Assembly (NCBI GenBank): GCA_963812605.1
Contig: CAWEWF010000014.1
Location: forward strand, 36,418-100,417
Origin: an uncultured Verrucomicrobiae bacterium
GTDB taxonomy: Bacteria; Verrucomicrobiota; Verrucomicrobiia; Palsa-1439
Length of the DNA stretch: 64,000 bases
Direction: 5' to 3'
The position numbers and the translations under genes were made by a program. The first letter of the stretch is position 1. Every line of letters starts with the position of its first letter. Under the pieces are notes generated by a model. It made no database searches, was not told the origin of the DNA, and saw nothing but the letters and a program-made list of their open reading frames with translations. Shown piece by piece: positions 25,652 to 37,779 of this stretch.

Positions 25652-25761
25652 ACGCTTCAGCCAAACGCAAAGCGAGTATGTGGATTGGGTAATTGACTGC
25701 GGGAAATGTGGTCGAGGCTTGACACTTGACATTTTACGTCTGGCGGGTCAACGTGCTAAAC

Positions 25762-26715
25762 ATGGCGCGACCGATTCGGGTGGAATTTCCGGGGGCTGTC
25801 TATCACGTGATGGCGCGCGGCAATGAGCGGCGCGACATCTTCCGCGATGATCGGGACCGAGAGCGGTTCCTCGACACCCTGGCCGGGGCGGTCGAGCGAT
25901 ACGGCTGGCGACTGCATGGCTACTGTCTCATGGGCAATCACTACCACGCGCTGGTGGGGACGCCGCGCGGAAACCTCAGCCACGGGATGGGCTGGTTGCA
26001 GGCCACCTACACCGCGCGATTCAATGCGCGGCATCGCCGACGGGGCCACCTGTTTGCCGGTCGCTACAAGGCCCAGATCATTGAAGCCGATGAATATGCG
26101 CGCTGGCTGGTAGAATACTTGCATCTCAATCCAGTGCGTCCCACCAACAAACGTCAACGCCTGGATCCCACGCGTCAGGAGGAATTGCAGCGCTACCGCT
26201 GGAGTAGCCACGGCGACTATGCCGGCTTGCGTCGCCAACCGCCCCCTTGGCTCTGCCTCGAATGGCAACGCTATTGGGGCCGGAACAAACGGGAAGCGGT
26301 CGCGGAATATCGAAAAGCCATGCGGCAGGCGTTTGGGTGTGTCGTCAGCAGCCCTTGGGAGCAAGTACGACGGGGATTGATCCTCGGGAGCGACGCGCTG
26401 TATGATCAGGTCCGACAACAGATCGAACAGCAGGACGGTTTGCAAGAAGCGCGCTGGACAGTTGCCGAAAATCAGCAGCGCGTGACCCAACGGATCAAGG
26501 AACTCGTAGCGCATGAACCGGACCGACGAATCCAACTCTGGGCGCGGGTGTGCTTGGGAGCTGAACGCAGCATCGAGGTGGCACGGGAACGCGGGTATCG
26601 AGACGGAAGCGCCGTGCGCCAGGTCATCAAGCGCCTCGAAGTCACCGCCCAAACCGACCGCCAACTGCGAAACCAACTGGATCGTCTCCGCAAAATGTCA
26701 AGAGTCAAGCCTTGA
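25762..26715 (+). CDS. HUH (Y1) transposase-domain protein, IS200-like/RAYT-like long form
   Basis: VYHVMARGNERRDIF … YCLMGNHYHALV is the HUH motif region of the IS200/IS605 TnpA / REP-associated tyrosine transposase fold. It carries a ~190-aa C-terminal extension. Confidence 0.7.
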   Translation: MARPIRVEFPGAVYHVMARGNERRDIFRDDRDRERFLDTLAGAVERYGWRLHGYCLMGNHYHALVGTPRGNLSHGMGWLQATYTARFNARHRRRGHLFAGRYKAQIIEADEYARWLVEYLHLNPVRPTNKRQRLDPTRQEELQRYRWSSHGDYAGLRRQPPPWLCLEWQRYWGRNKREAVAEYRKAMRQAFGCVVSSPWEQVRRGLILGSDALYDQVRQQIEQQDGLQEARWTVAENQQRVTQRIKELVAHEPDRRIQLWARVCLGAERSIEVARERGYRDGSAVRQVIKRLEVTAQTDRQLRNQLDRLRKMSRVKP

Positions 26716-27230: not shown

Positions 27231-27523
27231 GGATTCATTTAAGGGGCCGGATGAATTTCTGTCAAGGCCAGAGGGAAGGGGTCAGACCCGCGTAATCGCA
27301 TATTTATCAGCCGACTTGGCAAGTATAGGATCAGACTGCGCGAAGGCTCGCCGAATCCGGACACCAGATTCTGCGTGAGACGAATGGACGCGGAGTACTA
27401 TCAGCAGTGCCGTGCAAGGTCTCACCGATATGAGCTTGCGCATTTCGCGGCTTGCGCCTAATACTGTGTTCACACGTTGGTTACGGCTACTGGTCCGGAA
27501 TCTGCGAAACGGAGGATAGGCCC

Positions 27524-28480
27524 ATGAAAGTCAAGAATTTGAAATATACCTTGGTTGCTTCGCTGATGGCGATTACGGCCGCGCTCAATGCCCGCGCCTG
27601 GGATGGCACGGGGCACATGCTCGTCGCGCAGGTTGCGTACGACCGTCTCAATGACAAGGCGCGCGCGCGCGTGGACGAATTGGCCGCCAAACTTCACAAG
27701 GGCGATGCGCCATACAACGGCATCAATATCGCGTGCTGGCCCGACGACATCAAAGGGCCGGCTTCCGACCCGCAATTCCGCGGCTTGTACAAACCGTGGC
27801 ATTACATCGACATCGGCTGCAATCCCAACGATCCGGATCAATTCGCCAATCCTCCCGCGTTGACCCCGACCAATGGCAATGTCCTCGTGGCGCTGACGCA
27901 CTGCGTGGATCTCATTCGCAACAAGCAGTACGATGCGCTCGTGACGAACGAATCCGTCGCGCTGGCCATGGTCATTCATTTCGTGGGCGATATTCACCAG
28001 CCGTTGCATACGACCGCGCGCTACAACCCGGACCCGAAGCCTGACGACAAGTTCAAGGATGACGCCGGCGGCAACGGCGTGACCGTGGCCAATCTTGGCG
28101 ACGAGGTTTGGGGAAAGAACCTGCATTCGTTCTGGGACGAGGCGTATCGGCGCTACTACGAGAATGGCCAGGTCCAGGCCCTCGACCCGCTCGACCATGC
28201 CGACGCGCCGGACAGTCCGCCGTTGAAGGAGTGGATGAAGAAACTTCCTCTTGATGTGCCTGGGAAGCTGGATACGACTTATGACGTGAAGAAGTGGATC
28301 ATGGAATCGCACGAGATCGCCTGCACACAGGTCTATGGCACGCTCGGCGAACCCTACGGTGCCAAGGACATCAAGTTGAAGGAAGAATACGTCAAACAAG
28401 CGACGAACACCGCGCGCCACCAGATCGTCGTCGCCGGCTACCGCCTTGCTGCACTGCTCAACGATCTTTACGGAAAATAA
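27524..28480 (+). CDS. S1/P1-family single-strand-specific nuclease (secreted)
   Basis: Signal peptide, mature N-terminus WDGTGHMLVAQVA (W-x-x-G-H), and zinc-ligand motif HFVGDIHQPLH. Confidence 0.8.
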   Translation: MKVKNLKYTLVASLMAITAALNARAWDGTGHMLVAQVAYDRLNDKARARVDELAAKLHKGDAPYNGINIACWPDDIKGPASDPQFRGLYKPWHYIDIGCNPNDPDQFANPPALTPTNGNVLVALTHCVDLIRNKQYDALVTNESVALAMVIHFVGDIHQPLHTTARYNPDPKPDDKFKDDAGGNGVTVANLGDEVWGKNLHSFWDEAYRRYYENGQVQALDPLDHADAPDSPPLKEWMKKLPLDVPGKLDTTYDVKKWIMESHEIACTQVYGTLGEPYGAKDIKLKEEYVKQATNTARHQIVVAGYRLAALLNDLYGK

Positions 28481-29167: not shown

Positions 29168-30691
29168 GTGGCTACTTTCAATTCAGTTCCGCCCCGACAT
29201 GAGGACACTGGCGGGGCCCATTACGGTTTTGACCCAATGCGGTTTGGTCTCATCGGCGCGGTGGTCCTGGCCGCCGTGATTGTTGTCGGGTTCGTTTTTG
29301 CCTGGTTCTACTGCCGCATCGAACCCCCCACCGGAACCTGTGCAATTCTGACGCGGCTTGACGGCAAGGATATTCCCGCCAACGAGATCATCGCCACGTC
29401 GCCGGACCAGAAGGGAATCCAGTTGGATCCGCTGAGCGAAGGCCGCTATTTTCGCAATCCGCTGTACTGGCACTGGGAGATTGTGCCATTGGTGCAGATC
29501 CAGCAGAGCGAAGTCGGCGTGCTGGTGCGGCAGTTTGGCAAGACCGCGCCGCCGGGCCAGTTTATCGTGAAGGACAAGGAAGCGGACGGCACGCAGTATC
29601 GCGGGGTGATTGAGGAACCCCTGCGGCCGGGTACCTATCGAATCAATCCCAACGCCTATCACGTCGAGAAACGGCCCGCGGTGAAGATTGAACCCGGCGA
29701 GGTCGGCGTGGTCACGCTCCGTTACGGACGCGACCCGGCGGAGGCGAACACGATCCTGGTGAAGGACGGCGAACGCGGCGTGCAGGAGACGCCGTTGCGG
29801 CCGGGCACGTATTACCTCAACCCGTACATTTATCGCGTGGACGTGGTCGGCGTGCAGAGCCATAAGACGGAATTCGAGATCAACTTCCTCTCGAAGGATG
29901 GTTTCCGCTTTCCCGTCAAGGGTGCGGTCGAGTGGGCGGTGGAGGAGGCGAAGGCGCCCGAGGTTTTCGTGAAGATCGGCGACGAGGAGGACATCGTCAA
30001 CAAGGTCATCCTGCGCTCGGCGCTCTCGATGAGCCGCATCCAGGGATCGAAGTACAGCTCCGCCGATGTCATCAGCGGTACGGTGCGCAAGGCCTTTCAG
30101 GATGAATTCAGCAAGCACATCACGTCCGAATCCGCGAAGAAGAACATCCTGGTGAAGGCGGCGCTGATCAGCGAGATCGAGCCGTCGCAAAAAATCGCCG
30201 AGCCGATTCGCGAGCGCGAGATCGCCATCCAGACCCGCGCGAAGTACCAAAGTGAAATCGAGCGCGCCAAGTCGGACGCGAACGTTGCGCAGCAGATGAA
30301 AATGCAGGACCAGCGCGTTCGTTTCGTGACGGCGGAGACCACGCGCACCAACGAAATTCAAAAAGCCACGAAGGAGCAGCAGGTACAGGTCATCGCCGCG
30401 CAGCGCGACCTTGAAGTGGCGAAAAAAGACCTGGAGACGGCGGAGAACCAGTCCCAGGCGATTGTTTTCACGGGCCAGGGCGACGCGGACGTGATTACCT
30501 ATACGCGGACAGCGGAAGCGAACGCGCTGCGTTCGATCATCCTGCCGTTCGGCAACGGGGAGGCGTACGCGCGCTATTTGTATTTGAAGAAGATCGCGCC
30601 GAACATCGATTCGATCCTCGCCAACTCGGACGGGCCGCTTGCGGAACCTCTGCGGCAACTATCGCTGTCGCCGAAAGGCGGCGCCAAGTGA
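29168..30691 (+). CDS. SPFH/band-7 domain membrane protein with a triplicated N-terminal hairpin motif and a C-terminal coiled coil (paralog A)
   Basis: N-terminal TM, then three repeats of the E-x-G-V-hydrophobic … PG-T-Y-x-x-NP pattern (like the first strand/loop of HflK/C-type SPFH domains), then SPFH-like core and long alpha-helical tail. Confidence 0.65.
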   Translation: MATFNSVPPRHEDTGGAHYGFDPMRFGLIGAVVLAAVIVVGFVFAWFYCRIEPPTGTCAILTRLDGKDIPANEIIATSPDQKGIQLDPLSEGRYFRNPLYWHWEIVPLVQIQQSEVGVLVRQFGKTAPPGQFIVKDKEADGTQYRGVIEEPLRPGTYRINPNAYHVEKRPAVKIEPGEVGVVTLRYGRDPAEANTILVKDGERGVQETPLRPGTYYLNPYIYRVDVVGVQSHKTEFEINFLSKDGFRFPVKGAVEWAVEEAKAPEVFVKIGDEEDIVNKVILRSALSMSRIQGSKYSSADVISGTVRKAFQDEFSKHITSESAKKNILVKAALISEIEPSQKIAEPIREREIAIQTRAKYQSEIERAKSDANVAQQMKMQDQRVRFVTAETTRTNEIQKATKEQQVQVIAAQRDLEVAKKDLETAENQSQAIVFTGQGDADVITYTRTAEANALRSIILPFGNGEAYARYLYLKKIAPNIDSILANSDGPLAEPLRQLSLSPKGGAK

Positions 30692-31194
30692 GCGGGCAAC
30701 GGCGGGAACGTCGAATGCTCAACATTGAACTTTCAACGCTGAAAGAGGGAGGCGCGACCTACCAGGTTTACGACTTGGAGGAGAGACTTCTGGAGTACGC
30801 GGCAAGTATCATCCGTCTGGTGGAGCGGTTGCCTGCGACTCGTGCAGGCAATCATATCGCGGCGCAGTTGTTGAGGTCGGGGACTTCGCCGTTGCCCAAC
30901 CACGCCGAGGCACAAGCGGCAGAGTCGCGCAATGACTTCATCCACAAGTTAAGAATTTGTCTCAAGGAACTGCGGGAATCACTTCGCTGGTTGAAGCTCA
31001 TGAGGCGCGTGCCGCTTTTACAGCCGGCGTCGCAAGTTGACGCGCTCCTGACGGAGACGGAAGCCTTGGTAAAAATCTTCGTGGCGAGCGTCCGCACCGC
31101 CACGGCGAAAAATGGTCGCCCGTCCGCAGTTGGACGTTCGAAGTTCAACGTTGGACGTTCCGAGTTGAATTCGTTGCAGGAAGGTGGGCAATGA
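30688..31194 (+). CDS. Four-helix-bundle protein (23S rRNA intervening-sequence-protein family)
   Basis: YQVYDLEERLLEYAASIIRLVERLP … FIHKLRICLKELRESLRWLKL matches the family pattern. The alternative ATG at 30715 is possible. Confidence 0.65.
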   Translation: MSGQRRERRMLNIELSTLKEGGATYQVYDLEERLLEYAASIIRLVERLPATRAGNHIAAQLLRSGTSPLPNHAEAQAAESRNDFIHKLRICLKELRESLRWLKLMRRVPLLQPASQVDALLTETEALVKIFVASVRTATAKNGRPSAVGRSKFNVGRSELNSLQEGGQ

Positions 31195-32810
31195 AGAACC
31201 GCACTTTCATGATGGTGACTGCCGGGGTGCTGGTGCTGCTGCTGGCGTACGTGTTCGTCTACGAAGGGTTTTGGGTTTGGGTGGTGGAGAATACCGTGGT
31301 GCCGTCGAACAAGATGCTTGTCGTGATCGCCAAGACGGGCCGGGAAATGCCGGCCGGCCAAATCATCGCGGAGCCCGGGCAAAAAGGCGTGCTCCTCGAA
31401 CCGCTCGGCCCAGGCCGTCACTTCGTCAATCCGTTCCTGTACGAGCGGCAACTGAAAGACCAGGTTGTCGTGTCCGGCGGCGAAGTCGGCGTGGTGATCA
31501 CCAAGTTCGGCAAAGAACTACCTGAGGGTGAGTTTCTTGCTGGTCCGGGGGAACGCGGCATCCAGCGCGAGGTGCTGTTGCCCGGCACCTACCGGCTCAA
31601 TCCGTACGCCTACGAAATTCGGGTGGTAAAAATGATCGAGATCGATCCCGGTTACGTGGGCGTGGTCACGGCGCGTTCGGGCAAGCCCGCGGAAACGCAG
31701 TTGGCCGGTCCCGGTGAGCGCGGCGTGCAAAAGGTTGTCCTGCAACCCGGCTTGTACCCGCTCAATCCCGAGGCCTTTTCCGTCGAGCGCATCGAAATTG
31801 GTTACAACCAGATCACGATGGCCCACGCGGGCAAATTGCCGCAGTCGCAAACCTCGGGCCAGTTCGCCGGCAAGGAGAAACAGGCGGAAGCGATTGGCGA
31901 GGCGATGCAGCGGGCCCAGGTTCCCTCGGGCCAGTACGGCATTCCCGTCCTGCCCGCGGTAACGTTCCCATCGAGCGACGGATTTGAGATCACCATCGAC
32001 GTGACACTGCTCTGGCAATTGCTGCCGGAGGATGCGCCGTCGGTCGTGGCGCGGTACGGCAACATCAAGAAGATCGAGGAAAACATCCTGATCCCGCAGA
32101 TCAATTCCACCGCCCGCATCAAGGGGTCCACTTTTGGCGCGGTGGACTTCATCGTCGGCGACAAACGCGAGGAATTCCAGCGGGCGTTCCAGGAAACCAT
32201 CGAGACGACGTTGCAGGAGAAGAAACTGCAAGTGGACCTCGCGCTCGTGCAGGACACGCTGGTCCCCGACAACATTTCGGGGCCAATTCAGGACGCGCGC
32301 ATCGCGGCTGAGTGGAACATCACGAATGTCGAGAAGACAAAGACGGAAGCCAACAAGGCGGAACTGGACGAGAACATCGGCAAGATTCGCCAGGTTGAGC
32401 AGGTCGTCGAATACGAGACGCAGCGGCTGGAAGGCAACATCCACGCCGAGCAGGAAAAACAGGTGAATGAGACTGCCGCGCAGACGCGGTTGCTCGTCGC
32501 GGAGTTGGCGCGGCAGACCGCCGCGATTCGAGCGGACATCAAACGCAAACTTGGCGGCGCCGAGGCAAAGGTGGTGGAACTCAAGGGCAAAGCGGAAGGC
32601 GACGGCTACGCCTTGCAGGTGAAAGCGGTCGGCACGCCGGCAGATTACGCGTTCTACCAGTTCGCCCAGCAATTGCCTGAACAGATGAAGCTGATGTTGA
32701 TCTACGCCGGCACCGGCACGTTGTGGACGGACCTGGACAAGGCGATGAAGATTGCGCCGCTCGGCGTGCTACAGGAGCTGCAACAAGGTCCGCCGCCCGC
32801 CAGCAAGTGA
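31191..32810 (+). CDS. SPFH/band-7 domain membrane protein with a triplicated N-terminal hairpin motif (paralog B)
   Basis: Same architecture as 29168-30691: EPGQKGVLLEPLGPGRHFVNPFLYE / GPGERGIQREVLLPGTYRLNPYAYE / GPGERGVQKVVLQPGLYPLNPEAF. Confidence 0.65.
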   Translation: MKNRTFMMVTAGVLVLLLAYVFVYEGFWVWVVENTVVPSNKMLVVIAKTGREMPAGQIIAEPGQKGVLLEPLGPGRHFVNPFLYERQLKDQVVVSGGEVGVVITKFGKELPEGEFLAGPGERGIQREVLLPGTYRLNPYAYEIRVVKMIEIDPGYVGVVTARSGKPAETQLAGPGERGVQKVVLQPGLYPLNPEAFSVERIEIGYNQITMAHAGKLPQSQTSGQFAGKEKQAEAIGEAMQRAQVPSGQYGIPVLPAVTFPSSDGFEITIDVTLLWQLLPEDAPSVVARYGNIKKIEENILIPQINSTARIKGSTFGAVDFIVGDKREEFQRAFQETIETTLQEKKLQVDLALVQDTLVPDNISGPIQDARIAAEWNITNVEKTKTEANKAELDENIGKIRQVEQVVEYETQRLEGNIHAEQEKQVNETAAQTRLLVAELARQTAAIRADIKRKLGGAEAKVVELKGKAEGDGYALQVKAVGTPADYAFYQFAQQLPEQMKLMLIYAGTGTLWTDLDKAMKIAPLGVLQELQQGPPPASK

Positions 32811-32821
32811 GGCCTGCGCTT

Positions 32822-33223
32822 ATGCCAGCGAACTTCGACCACCGCATCTTTCACCGACGCCGCAAGCTGTTCAAGGTCATCGGCCTCGTGCTCGCGCTGG
32901 CAGGCGTGTTCGTACTCCTGAACATGATGGGCGAATTACCCGAGGAGCCGCTGAAAGGCACCAGTGCGATCTTCGCGGGGACCGTGTTGGTTCTTTTTGG
33001 AATCCTTTTTCTCTACCAGGGCTACAAGCTCCCACTCGAAGAAGCGCTTGAACTCATCCACGAACGCGGACGCGGGGTCACCGAATCGGAAATCGTCCAT
33101 GCCATGCGCGTGGACCAACCCACCGCCGGCCGCATCCTCCGCGGCCTCATTGCCAAGGGTTTCCTTCGCCGCGCCACCGAGCAGCCCAGTCACGCCGAGG
33201 AAGTCTTCGAGCCGGTAAGGTAG
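32822..33223 (+). CDS. Small membrane protein with two TM helices and a C-terminal winged-helix-like domain
   Basis: FKVIGLVLALAGVFVLL and AIFAGTVLVLFGILFLY helices. C-terminal TESEIVHAMRVDQPTAGRILRGLIAKGFLRR resembles a MarR/wHTH recognition helix. Confidence 0.5.
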   Translation: MPANFDHRIFHRRRKLFKVIGLVLALAGVFVLLNMMGELPEEPLKGTSAIFAGTVLVLFGILFLYQGYKLPLEEALELIHERGRGVTESEIVHAMRVDQPTAGRILRGLIAKGFLRRATEQPSHAEEVFEPVR

Positions 33224-34030: not shown

Positions 34031-35614
34031 CTAGGCTGAGGGTTCTTCTTTGCGATAACTGGAGACAACCCAGTCGCTGAGGAATTTGTCGGGGTCGGCC
34101 AGGGCGGATTTGGGGATGACGAATTCAGACTGGCCGGCGTTGCTCTTCACCAGGTTCAGGCCGAACTGGTAGTCCTTGAAAAGCTCGCGGCAGAGGTCGG
34201 TGACGGATTTGTGGGCGTGCTGGGCGCGCTCAATGATTTCTTCGATCGCGTCGGGTTCCAGGCGCATCCGCAGTTTGTGTTTCTCCTCGAACCTTCGCTC
34301 GTAATCGTGGACGAGTTGGCGCATCAATTCGCGCTGTTCGTACGCCGGTTCGTTGAGGATGCGTTGCAGTTCCGCCTCGGGGTTCTCCACAAGCGAGCGC
34401 GTGACGACGAATTGCCGCACCGTCGAGGAGGGCAGCTCGAACTTGAATTCCCGCAGGGCGCGTTCGCAAACAGTGAGCAACCCGCGCGCGCCGGTGTTTT
34501 CGAGCGCGGCTTTCTCGGCGATGGCGTGCAAACCCTCGTCCGAAAACATCACGTCGATGCCAAACGCGTGGAAGCTCGATTCGTACTGCTTGATCACCGA
34601 GCCCTCGCTTTGCTTGAGGATATGGTAGAGGTCGGCGACCGCGAGTTTATCGAGGACGACGCGGACGGGAAGGCGCCCAATGAACTCCGGTTCAAAACCG
34701 AATTTCACGAAGTCCTCCGTTTGCGCCCGCCGCTGAAGTTCCGCTTCGGTCACGGATTCCGCCAGGTGGCCGCCGAAACCGATATCCGCCTGGCGCACGC
34801 GCTTGCGGATGATCTCGAGCATCTGGTCGAAAGCGCCGCTAACGATGAAGAGAATGTGCTTGGTATTGATCGTCTCGCGTTTGACCTTGCCGCGCCGCTG
34901 GTATTCGAAAGCGGCCTGCAATTGTGCCTGGATGTCCGTGGGCGAGCGGAGAGGGACTTCCGTTTCCTCCATGAGTTTCAAGAGATTGGTCTGCACTCCG
35001 CGGCCGCTCACGTCGCGCCCGATGATATTGGCGGGCGCGGCAATTTTATCGATCTCATCGAGGTAAACGATGCCGTAGCTCGCGAGGTTTACGTCGCCGT
35101 CCGCGCGGTGGATGAGCTCACGGACAAGGTCTTCCACGTCGCCGCCGACGTAACCGGTTTCGCTGAACTTGGTGGCGTCCGCTTTCACGAACGGCACGCC
35201 GATGAGGTCGGCAATCGTCTTGATGAGATACGTCTTGCCCACGCCCGTGGGGCCGATGAGCAGCACGTTTTGTTTTACGTAATCGCGCAGTTCCTCGCCG
35301 TGCTCAGCGGCCTTGACGTGGTTGTAATGGTCGCAGACCGCGATGGCGAGGGCCTTTTTGGCGTCTTCCTGCTGGATGACAAAGCGGTCGAGATGCGCTT
35401 TGACCTCCTTCGGCTTGAGATGGAAATCGAACTCGAGTTCCTTGCGTTTTGGTTCCTCGCTCGGCGGCGCGGTTTCCACCGTCTCGGCCTGGGGCGAGGC
35501 AAAGACGACCCGGTCGCCAAACTCCTGTTTCATGAATTCAGAAAGTTTCTTCTGGATCTCTTCCGGCGACGGCAGTGGTTGGTCAGAACTCATATCATGG
35601 ATACTGTAGCTCAC
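34031..35614 (-). CDS. ClpX-family AAA+ unfoldase, atypical (no N-terminal zinc-binding domain, extended C-terminus)
   Basis: Walker A LLIGPTGVGKT, GYVGGDVE pore-loop region, Walker B IVYLDEIDK. Confidence 0.7.
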   Translation of the reverse strand: MSYSIHDMSSDQPLPSPEEIQKKLSEFMKQEFGDRVVFASPQAETVETAPPSEEPKRKELEFDFHLKPKEVKAHLDRFVIQQEDAKKALAIAVCDHYNHVKAAEHGEELRDYVKQNVLLIGPTGVGKTYLIKTIADLIGVPFVKADATKFSETGYVGGDVEDLVRELIHRADGDVNLASYGIVYLDEIDKIAAPANIIGRDVSGRGVQTNLLKLMEETEVPLRSPTDIQAQLQAAFEYQRRGKVKRETINTKHILFIVSGAFDQMLEIIRKRVRQADIGFGGHLAESVTEAELQRRAQTEDFVKFGFEPEFIGRLPVRVVLDKLAVADLYHILKQSEGSVIKQYESSFHAFGIDVMFSDEGLHAIAEKAALENTGARGLLTVCERALREFKFELPSSTVRQFVVTRSLVENPEAELQRILNEPAYEQRELMRQLVHDYERRFEEKHKLRMRLEPDAIEEIIERAQHAHKSVTDLCRELFKDYQFGLNLVKSNAGQSEFVIPKSALADPDKFLSDWVVSSYRKEEPSA

Positions 35615-37779
35615 CCTGCCGCATTTTCAACGATGGGCGCAAGCGCGGCCCGGAATTGCGCGAGGTTTTCCGATTTGCCGATGACCACGAGATCGTCGCC
35701 TATGACCAGCCGCGTGGCGGGTTCGGGCATCTCCGTGAGGCTGCGACCCGTGACCGGATCACGGCGCTTGATGGCAAGGATGTGGACGCCGTAGCTGGCG
35801 CGGGGCGCCAGGTCCGCCAGCGTGCGACCGCCCAGGTGCGCGGGCAATTCGAGCGTCCGCAGTTCGAAGCCCTCGGGCAGCTCCAGGAAAACATCGCGTT
35901 TCTCATCGCCTTCCTTGACGACAAAGTGCCCGAGAAGCTGCCGCTTGTGCATGATCTCCTGGCTGTAGACGCCCAGCAGGTCGCGTTTCGAAATCCAGCC
36001 AATCAGTTTGCGATCCGTGGGATTGTTGATCACGGGCAGGCGTTCGGCGTTTTCCCGCCAGAAAATGTCCATCGCGTCGGCCAGGTTCTGGCGCGGGGTC
36101 ACGAATTGGAACGAGTCGTCCACCAGATCATCGGCGATGACAGATGACAGCGATTCGCCCTGATGCAACATTTCCTTCATCGAATGGAGTCGAATCGCCC
36201 CGAGAAACCTGCCCTCGCTATTCACCACGTAAAGATTGCTGTACGGCTCCTTCAGGAATTGCTCCACAATCATGGAGAAAGGGACCGAGTGGCTGACCGC
36301 GGGCACGTCATCATGCATGATGTCCTCCACCCGCAGCGATTGCATGACGCCGGCTTCGAGTCCCGTGGGTAGCACCACGCCGCTGCGGTGGAGTGACTCC
36401 TCTTCCAGCGAGCGGGCCTTGAAGAGGCGCGTCGTGAAATGGCTGACGATACAAACGAACATCAATGGCAGCACAATCTGGTAGTTGTTGGTCTGTTCAA
36501 AAATCATCATGATGGCCGTGAGGGGCGCATGTGTCATTCCCGCGAGAAGCCCGCCCATGCCCACCAGCGCGTAGGCGCCATGCTCGGCCGTCGCGTGCGG
36601 AAATAATTCGTGGACACCATAGCCGAACGCGCCTCCCAGCAGGGACCCCAGCATCAGGGACGGTGTAAACATCCCGCCCGCGCCACCGGATCCAAATGTC
36701 AGTGAGGAAGCGAGCATCTTCAGGGGAATCAGCGTCAATAGCAGCAGGATCGGAAGCTGCCCGCGCAGCGTCAGATTCACTGTTTCGAAGCCGTTGCCGT
36801 ACACGTGGGGATACCAAACCCCGATCACCCCGACCAGTGCCATGCCAAGCGCGGGCTTTACCCATTTCGGCACGGGGAGTTTCTCGAAAGCATCCTGCGA
36901 ACCGAACAGCACGCGCATGAATAGCAGGGAGATTAACCCCGAAAGCAATCCCAGGATGAGATAGGGCAGGAGTTCCCACGCCGACACGAGTTCGTAATGC
37001 GGGACCTCAAAGCGCGGCAGGTTGCCCATACAACTGCGGAACACCAGCGTCGAAATCACCGACACCACGACGACGGGTCCGAGCACCTCGATGGCGAAGT
37101 TGCCCATGAGAATTTCCAGCGCGAACAGCGAGCCGCCAATCGGCGCGTTGTACACCGCCGCCAACGCTGCCGCCGCCGAGGCGCAGACCAATATGCGTAG
37201 CTGCTGGGTTGTCAGGTTGAAGCGGCGTCCCATATAAGAGCCAATCGCGCTGGCCAGCAGCGCCATGGCGCCTTCACGACCCAGGGAACCGCCCGTGGAA
37301 ATCGTCACAATCGCCGCCCAGTCGCGCGGCACCGTCTGCCGTACGGAGATCGCACCGCCTTTCAGGGACACGGCTTGCATAATGGTGGTGATGCCGCCAC
37401 CGCGGGTCTGGACGCGAAAGAACCAGCCGATCAAGCCCACCAACAATCCGCCGACAAGGGGAATGATAATACGGACCGGCCAGGGATTATCGGCGGCGGC
37501 ATCGAGCAGATTCTGGCCGCTGCCCCAGAACTGGTTCTGGAGAAAGGAAATGATGTGCGCGGTCACCACGGAGGTGAGGCCGACCGTCAAGCCCACCAGC
37601 GGCAGGAGCAAGAGAAACACGTTCTCGCCGGGAGAGCGTTTGGCCAGCTGCGGCCAGATCAAGGTCCGGAATTTGTTGCCGATTGACCGAACCCATGGCA
37701 GCAATGGTTGCATCTGAGGTATTGTAGTAACAAATCGGGCGCGATGGGTCAAACCATGCGCTGCAGGAAAGTCTTGCAA
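35611..37779 (-). CDS. ClC-family chloride channel/antiporter with C-terminal CBS pair and TrkA-C (RCK_C) domain
   Basis: ClC motifs GGSLGREGA and GGMFTPSL, about 10 TM helices, and a C-terminal regulatory domain. ATGA overlap with the downstream ClpX-like gene. Confidence 0.8.
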   Translation of the reverse strand: MQDFPAAHGLTHRARFVTTIPQMQPLLPWVRSIGNKFRTLIWPQLAKRSPGENVFLLLLPLVGLTVGLTSVVTAHIISFLQNQFWGSGQNLLDAAADNPWPVRIIIPLVGGLLVGLIGWFFRVQTRGGGITTIMQAVSLKGGAISVRQTVPRDWAAIVTISTGGSLGREGAMALLASAIGSYMGRRFNLTTQQLRILVCASAAAALAAVYNAPIGGSLFALEILMGNFAIEVLGPVVVVSVISTLVFRSCMGNLPRFEVPHYELVSAWELLPYLILGLLSGLISLLFMRVLFGSQDAFEKLPVPKWVKPALGMALVGVIGVWYPHVYGNGFETVNLTLRGQLPILLLLTLIPLKMLASSLTFGSGGAGGMFTPSLMLGSLLGGAFGYGVHELFPHATAEHGAYALVGMGGLLAGMTHAPLTAIMMIFEQTNNYQIVLPLMFVCIVSHFTTRLFKARSLEEESLHRSGVVLPTGLEAGVMQSLRVEDIMHDDVPAVSHSVPFSMIVEQFLKEPYSNLYVVNSEGRFLGAIRLHSMKEMLHQGESLSSVIADDLVDDSFQFVTPRQNLADAMDIFWRENAERLPVINNPTDRKLIGWISKRDLLGVYSQEIMHKRQLLGHFVVKEGDEKRDVFLELPEGFELRTLELPAHLGGRTLADLAPRASYGVHILAIKRRDPVTGRSLTEMPEPATRLVIGDDLVVIGKSENLAQFRAALAPIVENAAG

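Follow-up and report, generated by a model that had tools for sequence, protein, structure and literature searches.

The solved membrane SPFH cages, namely those of HflK/C, prohibitin, erlin, flotillin, stomatin and QmcA, are described with a single SPFH1 module per subunit. Vault repeats have likewise been described as SPFH1 copies, and a few bacterial and Asgard homologues of the vault protein MVP are reported, the Asgard ones having five repeats (PMC12962969). Here we describe a pair of genes, A and C, from an uncultured Verrucomicrobiae bacterium (GenBank assembly GCA_963812605.1, contig CAWEWF010000014.1, positions 36,418 to 100,417 of the forward strand; this whole 64,000-nucleotide stretch is referred to as the window). 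Each encodes an SPFH protein in which three successive SPFH1-like modules follow an N-terminal transmembrane (TM) helix. Our preferred reading, to which we assign a probability of roughly 0.6, is that A and C build a hetero-oligomeric, membrane-anchored cage of the HflK/C-prohibitin-erlin type on the periplasmic face, with a wall extended by two SPFH1-like rings. No description of a TM-anchored, paired, multi-SPFH1 bacterial family was found in the literature searched, and repeats go unmentioned in a 2009 classification of SPFH proteins from prokaryotes; within that literature the family is apparently undescribed, the vault-like principle itself being known.

The host belongs to the Verrucomicrobiota, and its nearest relatives are metagenome-assembled genomes from peat and permafrost with 85-95% identity in A. 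The locus consists of four genes.

29168 to 30691, plus strand: gene A, an A-type SPFH subunit of 507 aa with a TM helix, three SPFH1-like modules, an SPFH2 core and a long helix
30688 to 31194, plus strand: gene B, a four-helix-bundle protein of the 23S rRNA intervening sequence (IVS) protein family, 168 aa, with 4-nt overlaps with A and C
31191 to 32810, plus strand: gene C, a C-type SPFH subunit of 539 aa with an A-like architecture and a subunit-specific insertion
32822 to 33223, plus strand: gene D, 133 aa, with TM helices at aa 19-36 and 49-65 and a C-terminal MarR-like winged helix at aa 72-133

Analysis of the open reading frames (ORFs) of the window showed that the start of B and the stop of A share the letters GTGA, and that the stop of B and the start of C share ATGA. 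The start of D at 32822 is backed by the lengths of its homologues (130-141 aa).

An earlier note on this DNA, the original prediction, had been made from the letters alone and had claimed two paralogous SPFH genes with a motif triplicated at the N-terminus. The paralogy is borne out, as Band_7 (PF01145) scores above the Pfam gathering score in both A (aa 173-371, E 8.5e-24) and C (aa 150-387, E 7.3e-22), and the two proteins align colinearly over their full length. The parts of A and C are as follows.

29234 to 29311, plus strand: N-terminal TM helix of A (aa 23-48), from the AlphaFold2 helix and hydropathy
29315 to 29497, plus strand: repeat 1 of A (aa 50-110), membrane-proximal, with conserved YF..NP..W.W aromatics
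29498 to 29683, plus strand: repeat 2 of A (aa 111-172)
29684 to 29857, plus strand: repeat 3 of A (aa 173-230), the canonical SPFH1 module, at which the Band_7 match begins
29858 to 30187, plus strand: SPFH2 alpha/beta core of A (aa 231-340; aa 232-337 in the AlphaFold2 model)
30188 to 30550, plus strand: long helix of A (aa 341-461, AlphaFold2), the counterpart of the CC1/CC2 wall and roof in SPFH cages
31275 to 31466, plus strand: repeat 1 of C (aa 29-92)
31467 to 31637, plus strand: repeat 2 of C (aa 93-149)
31638 to 31808, plus strand: repeat 3 of C (aa 150-206), at which the Band_7 match begins
31821 to 31955, plus strand: C-type-specific insertion of ~45 aa between repeat 3 and SPFH2

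All 15 pairs of the six repeat units gave local-alignment z-scores of 6.6-22.5 (300 shuffles per pairwise alignment), and the triplication in A and C is real and far beyond chance. The units share the consensus xIxxGxVGVxxxxxGxxxPxGxIxAxxGxKGIxxxxLxPGxYxxNPYxxxV, and a 57-position repeat profile finds three matches in family members. An AlphaFold2 model of full-length A, built on an alignment of 65 sequences, has a mean predicted local distance difference test (pLDDT) score of 82 and contains three successive all-beta modules with pLDDT >90; repeats 1 and 2 modelled alone reach 92.8. Internal duplication is therefore detected by pairwise scores, profile and predicted structure alike, and the triplication that had been predicted stands. 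What does not stand is the repeating unit, which had been taken for a hairpin motif: it is a complete beta module of ~57 residues and 4-5 strands, the third copy being the canonical SPFH1 subdomain. The domain arrangement was also rightly called non-canonical, since HflK/C, prohibitin, stomatin and flotillin have one SPFH1 module. Within the family, residues Y94, F95, W101 and W103 of A repeat 1 are invariant or near-invariant, and the ~45-aa insertion of C occurs in 92-98% of 67 orthologues with a poorly conserved sequence. In the model, the long helix of A shows a pLDDT dip at aa 379-387, where it is possibly kinked.

The conserved unit of the locus is the A-C pair. A pattern scan of one genome per species yielded at least 504 loci encoding a relative, of which 80 were kept for comparison. 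These comprise Verrucomicrobiota with 73-95% identity and a group of ~40% identity from Kiritimatiellota/Pontiella, Lentisphaerota, Desulfobacterota, Gammaproteobacteria, Planctomycetota, Omnitrophota and Auribacterota. Every locus with sufficient flank shows the order A-type gene, then C-type gene; the A/C duplication therefore predates the spread of the family. Of 78 loci, 67 have a 4-nt overlap between the stop of A and the start of C, and in four others the overlap is 1 or 0 nt (71/78 in total), a pattern indicative of strong, conserved translational coupling. Clustering of genes across the 80 loci gave no conserved neighbour beyond A-C, plus D in one clade, and no conserved third gene in the ~40%-identity clades of other phyla.

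After the TM helix, A-type and many C-type proteins share a juxtamembrane motif, W-F/G-F-C-R-I/F, whose cysteine is nearly invariant (29303-29320 in A; C-type equivalents were noted in the ~40%-identity clade). To judge from the motif, this cysteine could be a lipidation or disulfide site.

The repeat is not confined to proteins with three copies. Among 1.84 billion representatives, the repeat profile matched 1588 clusters at E <= 0.001, with three copies being commonest and 4, 5, 6, 7, 8, 9, 11, 13 and 15 also found; since copies range from three to 15, repeat number is a variable of the lineage. Nine multi-repeat relatives were scanned with Pfam. Band_7 follows the repeats in eight of them (none was found in protein P0245), a C-terminal VWA domain is additionally present in two (P0228 and P0274), and weak matches to the CshA adhesin repeat occur in P0228, P0238 and P0274. 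Relatives with 5-15 repeats match Pfam Band_7 and no MVP-specific family at E <= 0.01, and the multi-repeat relatives inspected carry a hydrophobic N-terminal stretch resembling a TM helix. Six of these proteins (P0228, P0231, P0235, P0238, P0245 and P0274) contain 9-15 tandem copies in 875-1802 aa; no mention of such giant SPFH proteins was found in the literature searched.

The spread from three to 15 repeats, together with the C-terminal VWA domains and weak adhesin-repeat matches of some relatives, would suit a periplasmic stalk or spacer, whose beta repeats, serving as ruler or tether, would hold the SPFH and helical part out toward the peptidoglycan or outer membrane, with the reach set by repeat number. 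We consider this very doubtful. The strict pairing and translational coupling of A-type and C-type proteins fit a hetero-oligomeric ring, and the solved SPFH-family assemblies among the structural matches, including MVP, pack their SPFH modules laterally into rings (PMC11348225).

A Foldseek search with the model of A gave its longest alignments with MVP, spanning 534-565 columns for a query of 507 residues (E 3.6e-12 to 9e-8); the other listed matches align over 163-383 columns. As in MVP, tandem beta repeats, an SPFH-like shoulder and a long helix are present in one chain. At E <= 1, A and C match Band_7 alone among Pfam families, with no match to an MVP-specific family (vault repeat, MVP shoulder), and a single-repeat profile run against PDB sequences retrieved no MVP and no SPFH protein at E <= 10. 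The link to MVP is therefore structural only: because both the Pfam and the profile searches fail to find MVP, membership of A and C in the MVP family is not supported, and the architecture alone is shared. One could go further and see in the A/C pair and its 4-15-repeat relatives a bacterial radiation of "tall" SPFH cages that survive as intermediates linking HflK/C- or prohibitin-type cages to MVP. In such a radiation repeat number would be a tunable ruler for cage height, and the vault architecture would have arisen from it, or in parallel, by serial SPFH1 duplication and loss of the membrane anchor. We regard this evolutionary extension as quite unlikely.

To assign a membrane orientation, we compared the charges flanking the TM helix, which is conserved at the N-terminus in both families. 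C-type proteins average 1.89 K/R and 0.15 D/E in the N-terminal flank against 0.88 K/R and 1.47 D/E in the C-terminal flank; A-type proteins follow the same trend with a weaker signal. By the positive-inside rule, clear for the C-type and weak for the A-type, this favours a cytoplasmic N-terminus and a periplasmic bulk for both proteins. The N-terminus of HflC has this same N-in orientation.

In the cage that we propose, one N-terminal TM helix would anchor each of A and C, with the N-terminus in the cytoplasm, and coupled translation would supply similar amounts of the two subunits, which would alternate in the ring. Repeat 1 would sit on the membrane, and repeats 2 and 3 would form extra rings beneath the SPFH2 ring and the helical dome. 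Because of its conserved aromatics Y94, F95, W101 and W103, repeat 1 probably takes over the membrane-contact role of SPFH1 in erlin and prohibitin complexes, in which SPFH1 aromatic residues contact the membrane (PMC12624060). By analogy with vault repeats, the stacked modules would raise the cage wall by ~5-6 nm, and the building principle of the MVP barrel would be applied to a membrane-anchored cage. Such an assembly would enclose a patch of membrane together with a larger chamber in the periplasm, available to client membrane proteins. D would be a dedicated partner in the Verrucomicrobiota clade, located in or at the enclosed patch and linking it to the cytoplasm. The B cassette is inserted such that A-C coupling persists, B itself being no part of the machine.

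Several points weigh against this proposal. The orientation is drawn solely from the positive-inside rule, with its weaker signal for the A-type, and ring formation and subunit alternation are drawn from analogy with HflK/C, PHB1/2, erlin1/2 and FLOT1/2. No protease or client gene is conserved near A-C in the 80 loci. A periplasmic cage would put the winged helix of D on the opposite side of the membrane, linked to the cage through the TM hairpin only. The VWA domains and weak adhesin-repeat matches of the longer relatives fit a stalk or spacer as well as a cage wall. Lastly, A and C match no NCBIfam HflK or HflC model at E <= 1. This last result bears equally on the idea that the pair is a functional equivalent of HflK/C, whose cage encloses and modulates FtsH, with the extra modules adjusting only its height. 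The nearest solved structure by sequence is prohibitin, at an E of only ~1e-3, and linkage to ftsH was found in 0/80 loci; equivalence to HflK/C is thus possible, if on the unlikely side.

Gene D is tightly linked to the pair within one clade. It lies directly after C in 17/17 Verrucomicrobiota-clade loci with sufficient downstream sequence, and its homologues form 107 clusters of 130-141 aa, all from Verrucomicrobiota; an iterative search found none outside this phylum. The family has a mean column identity of 67%, with a conserved FHRRRK motif, GYKLPLEEA junction, HTH and EEVFEPVR tail. The N-terminal half of the protein consists of two hydrophobic TM helices, after which a MarR-type HTH (aa 75-117, E 2.4e-6) scores 27.8 bits against a Pfam threshold of 24.6. 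The basic N-terminus and an acidic loop of 12 residues indicate that both termini, including the winged helix, would be cytoplasmic.

These features invite the reading that D acts as a transcription factor tethered to the membrane and controlled by the A/C assembly, the two forming an envelope-stress signalling device. D passes the Pfam MarR threshold, its winged helix can be aligned with the HTH cores of two MarR structures (PDB 3bpx and 2fbh), its NCBI name is MarR family regulator, and its linkage to C is tight and clade-wide. However, MarR structures have a soluble fold of ~140 aa in which N- and C-terminal dimerisation helices surround the winged HTH, and D, which ends directly after the wing, lacks these helices. 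Neither a DNA target nor an operator repeat was found, and a promoter scan upstream of A gave no sigma-70-like site. D is also absent from most phyla with an A-C pair and is therefore not essential to the core function. Taken together, a role as transcription factor appears unlikely. PADLOC matched no defence system at the locus, a single weak TM/HTH match being returned for D.

It had been suggested that D stands where an NfeD gene would be expected. The Pfam matches of D are of the HTH and TM type, with none to any NfeD family. To our knowledge, an NfeD partner is not typical of HflK/C- or prohibitin-type SPFH proteins, the closest structural relatives of A/C, for which its absence is normal; the pairing has been described for stomatin-type SPFH1 and SPFH5 proteins (PMC2636767, PMC2644673). 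The arrangement does recall stomatin/NfeD operons (e.g. QmcA-YbbJ) and flotillin-NfeD, where the SPFH gene likewise precedes a gene for a small membrane protein whose C-terminal domain is soluble. The partner there is NfeD, whereas here it is a winged-helix protein limited to one clade, and A and C resemble type II, periplasm-facing SPFH proteins rather than the cytoplasm-facing stomatins.

Gene B was correctly recognised in the original prediction as a 23S-IVP-type four-helix-bundle gene overlapping the stop of A (through the GTGA noted above). It matches 23S_rRNA_IVP (PF05635, E 5e-12, 46.3 bits against a cut-off of 33.8) and the NCBIfam model TIGR02436, "four helix bundle protein" (E 4e-23, 81.6 bits against 24), and its family is very large, with 5873 matches at E <= 1e-10. 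An identical protein in the public record (P0377) has 159 aa and starts at Met10 (30715), whereas gene callers applied to loci L081 and L084 chose a start that overlaps the stop of A; the overlapping start (30688) is favoured because L081 has an ATG there and no nearby internal Met. B lies in a cassette with the following features.

30692 to 31190, plus strand: inserted cassette (~500 bp) between the A stop and the C start, from junction comparison and gap analysis, missing in most relatives
30705 to 30737, no strand: left arm of the cassette inverted repeat, 33 nt, 76% complementary, with equivalents in L002, L081 and L084 and a conserved outer stem
31129 to 31161, no strand: right arm of the cassette inverted repeat, complementary to the left arm

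Other copies of the cassette are located at 7525-8023 in L002, 5005-5500 in L081 and 1708-2194 in L084. Each copy is bracketed by imperfect inverted repeats of 31-47 nt with a TTGAACGT-like motif. A consensus fold computed from all four copies retains the outer stem but shows little covariation, and the whole insert folds somewhat better than shuffled sequences (z -2.7). No second copy of B or of its repeat arm is present in the window. The cassette resembles rRNA IVS elements in that an ORF lies between long inverted repeats able to form a stem; those elements sit in an rRNA gene, whereas B sits between two protein-coding genes of an operon.

The distribution of B is sporadic. Of the 81 related loci with an A-C junction (the 78 of the gap analysis plus the window, L082 and L083), 76 lack it; it is common only to the window, L002, L081/L082/L083 and L084/L085, at the same junction in all. 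An A-C gap of ~490-500 nt is seen in B-bearing loci only, and 4-nt overlaps on both sides of B preserve the coupling in all copies. In L001, the closest relative by A identity (95% to the A protein of the window), B is absent and the stop of A directly overlaps the start of C (TGATG). The B-bearing lineages do not form a single clade in a neighbour-joining tree of A proteins, which implies that B was either lost precisely more than once or gained more than once at this site. Because of this pattern and of its inverted-repeat-bounded cassette, we read B as a hitch-hiking, IVS-like variable insertion outside the SPFH machine. The non-monophyletic presence and absence among close relatives further suggests that the cassette may be a mobile element that enters and leaves operons precisely. 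A very recent insertion was considered and dropped, since a sister clade has diverged copies (70-73% identity) at this junction.

The last ~30 nt of the cassette (31162-31190, GAGTTGAATTCGTTGCAGGAAGGTGGGCA) resemble the 3' end of A (30660-30691, TCGCTGTCGCCGAAAGGCGGCGCCAAGTGA); the same regions were compared in L002. The likeness covers a purine-rich stretch, a putative ribosome-binding site for C. The cassette end may be a diverged target duplication that restored coupling to C; the likeness is modest, and chance could account for it.

These data bear on the view, advanced in the original prediction, that A, B, C and D form a functional module with a fixed partner set. All four ORFs share a strand, each stop overlaps or almost adjoins the next start, and B recurs at the same junction in L002, L081/L082/L083 and L084/L085. 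Against this stand the absence of B from 76/81 junction loci, L001 among them, the non-monophyly of its carriers, its membership in a very large family and position inside inverted repeats, and the absence of D outside Verrucomicrobiota. The comparative data largely refute a four-gene module, which we now consider highly improbable. Conservation of gene order, whose absence would have counted against the original prediction, thus holds for A-C but fails for B, found in only five related lineages, and for D, which is confined to the Verrucomicrobiota. D itself proves to be a real, tightly linked and highly conserved 2-TM winged-helix partner within that phylum only, and the supposedly non-canonical partner set is mostly explained away, B being an insertion and the absence of NfeD being normal.

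Some observations concern the surroundings of the locus. An S1/P1 nuclease gene (27452-28480, plus strand) lies directly upstream of the SPFH genes in the window; such a gene lies directly downstream of D in L081 (7646-8602) and L082 (2721-3677), and a B12-binding radical SAM gene lies near the SPFH genes in both the window and L081. The neighbourhood is thus conserved yet rearranged, with no functional link apparent. A 329-aa ORF 2.5 kb upstream of the SPFH genes (25726-26715, plus strand) contains an IS200-like Y1 transposase domain at aa 25-133 (Pfam Y1_Tnp, E 4.7e-13), followed by a long C-terminal extension. Long antisense ORFs at 29183-30658 (minus strand, 491 aa), 31518-32672 (minus strand, 384 aa) and 34211-35794 (plus strand, 527 aa) overlap A, C and an AAA ATPase gene; these are shadow ORFs typical of GC-rich DNA and not genes, and such ORFs produced many spurious "conserved" clusters in the neighbourhood analysis. 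A terminator scan gave matches not meaningfully above the shuffled expectation, and Rfam at E <= 1 returned two sub-threshold, chance-level matches and nothing else.

The vault, a soluble and mainly eukaryotic particle with a few reported homologues in bacteria and Asgard archaea, is so far the lone example of many-copy SPFH1. A widespread family with an anchor, a hetero-pair and three SPFH1-like modules, and with relatives that have up to 15, would make wall height an evolvable parameter. Together with its multi-repeat relatives, it would provide a tractable series on ring stacking versus cage geometry and a concrete route from an SPFH protein to a vault-like barrel. Cultured Pontiellaceae isolates that carry the A-C pair (L029 and L036) give experimental access.

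Two of the known systems that come closest to A and C differ from them as follows. The cages of HflK/HflC, PHB1/PHB2 and erlin1/2 have one SPFH1 module per subunit, whereas A and C have three. In the predicted model, moreover, the C-terminal region of A/C is helical, in contrast to a demonstrated beta-barrel cap. MVP, on the other hand, has nine repeats and forms a soluble closed particle from a single protein, whereas A and C are a hetero-pair with three repeats each and an N-terminal TM anchor.

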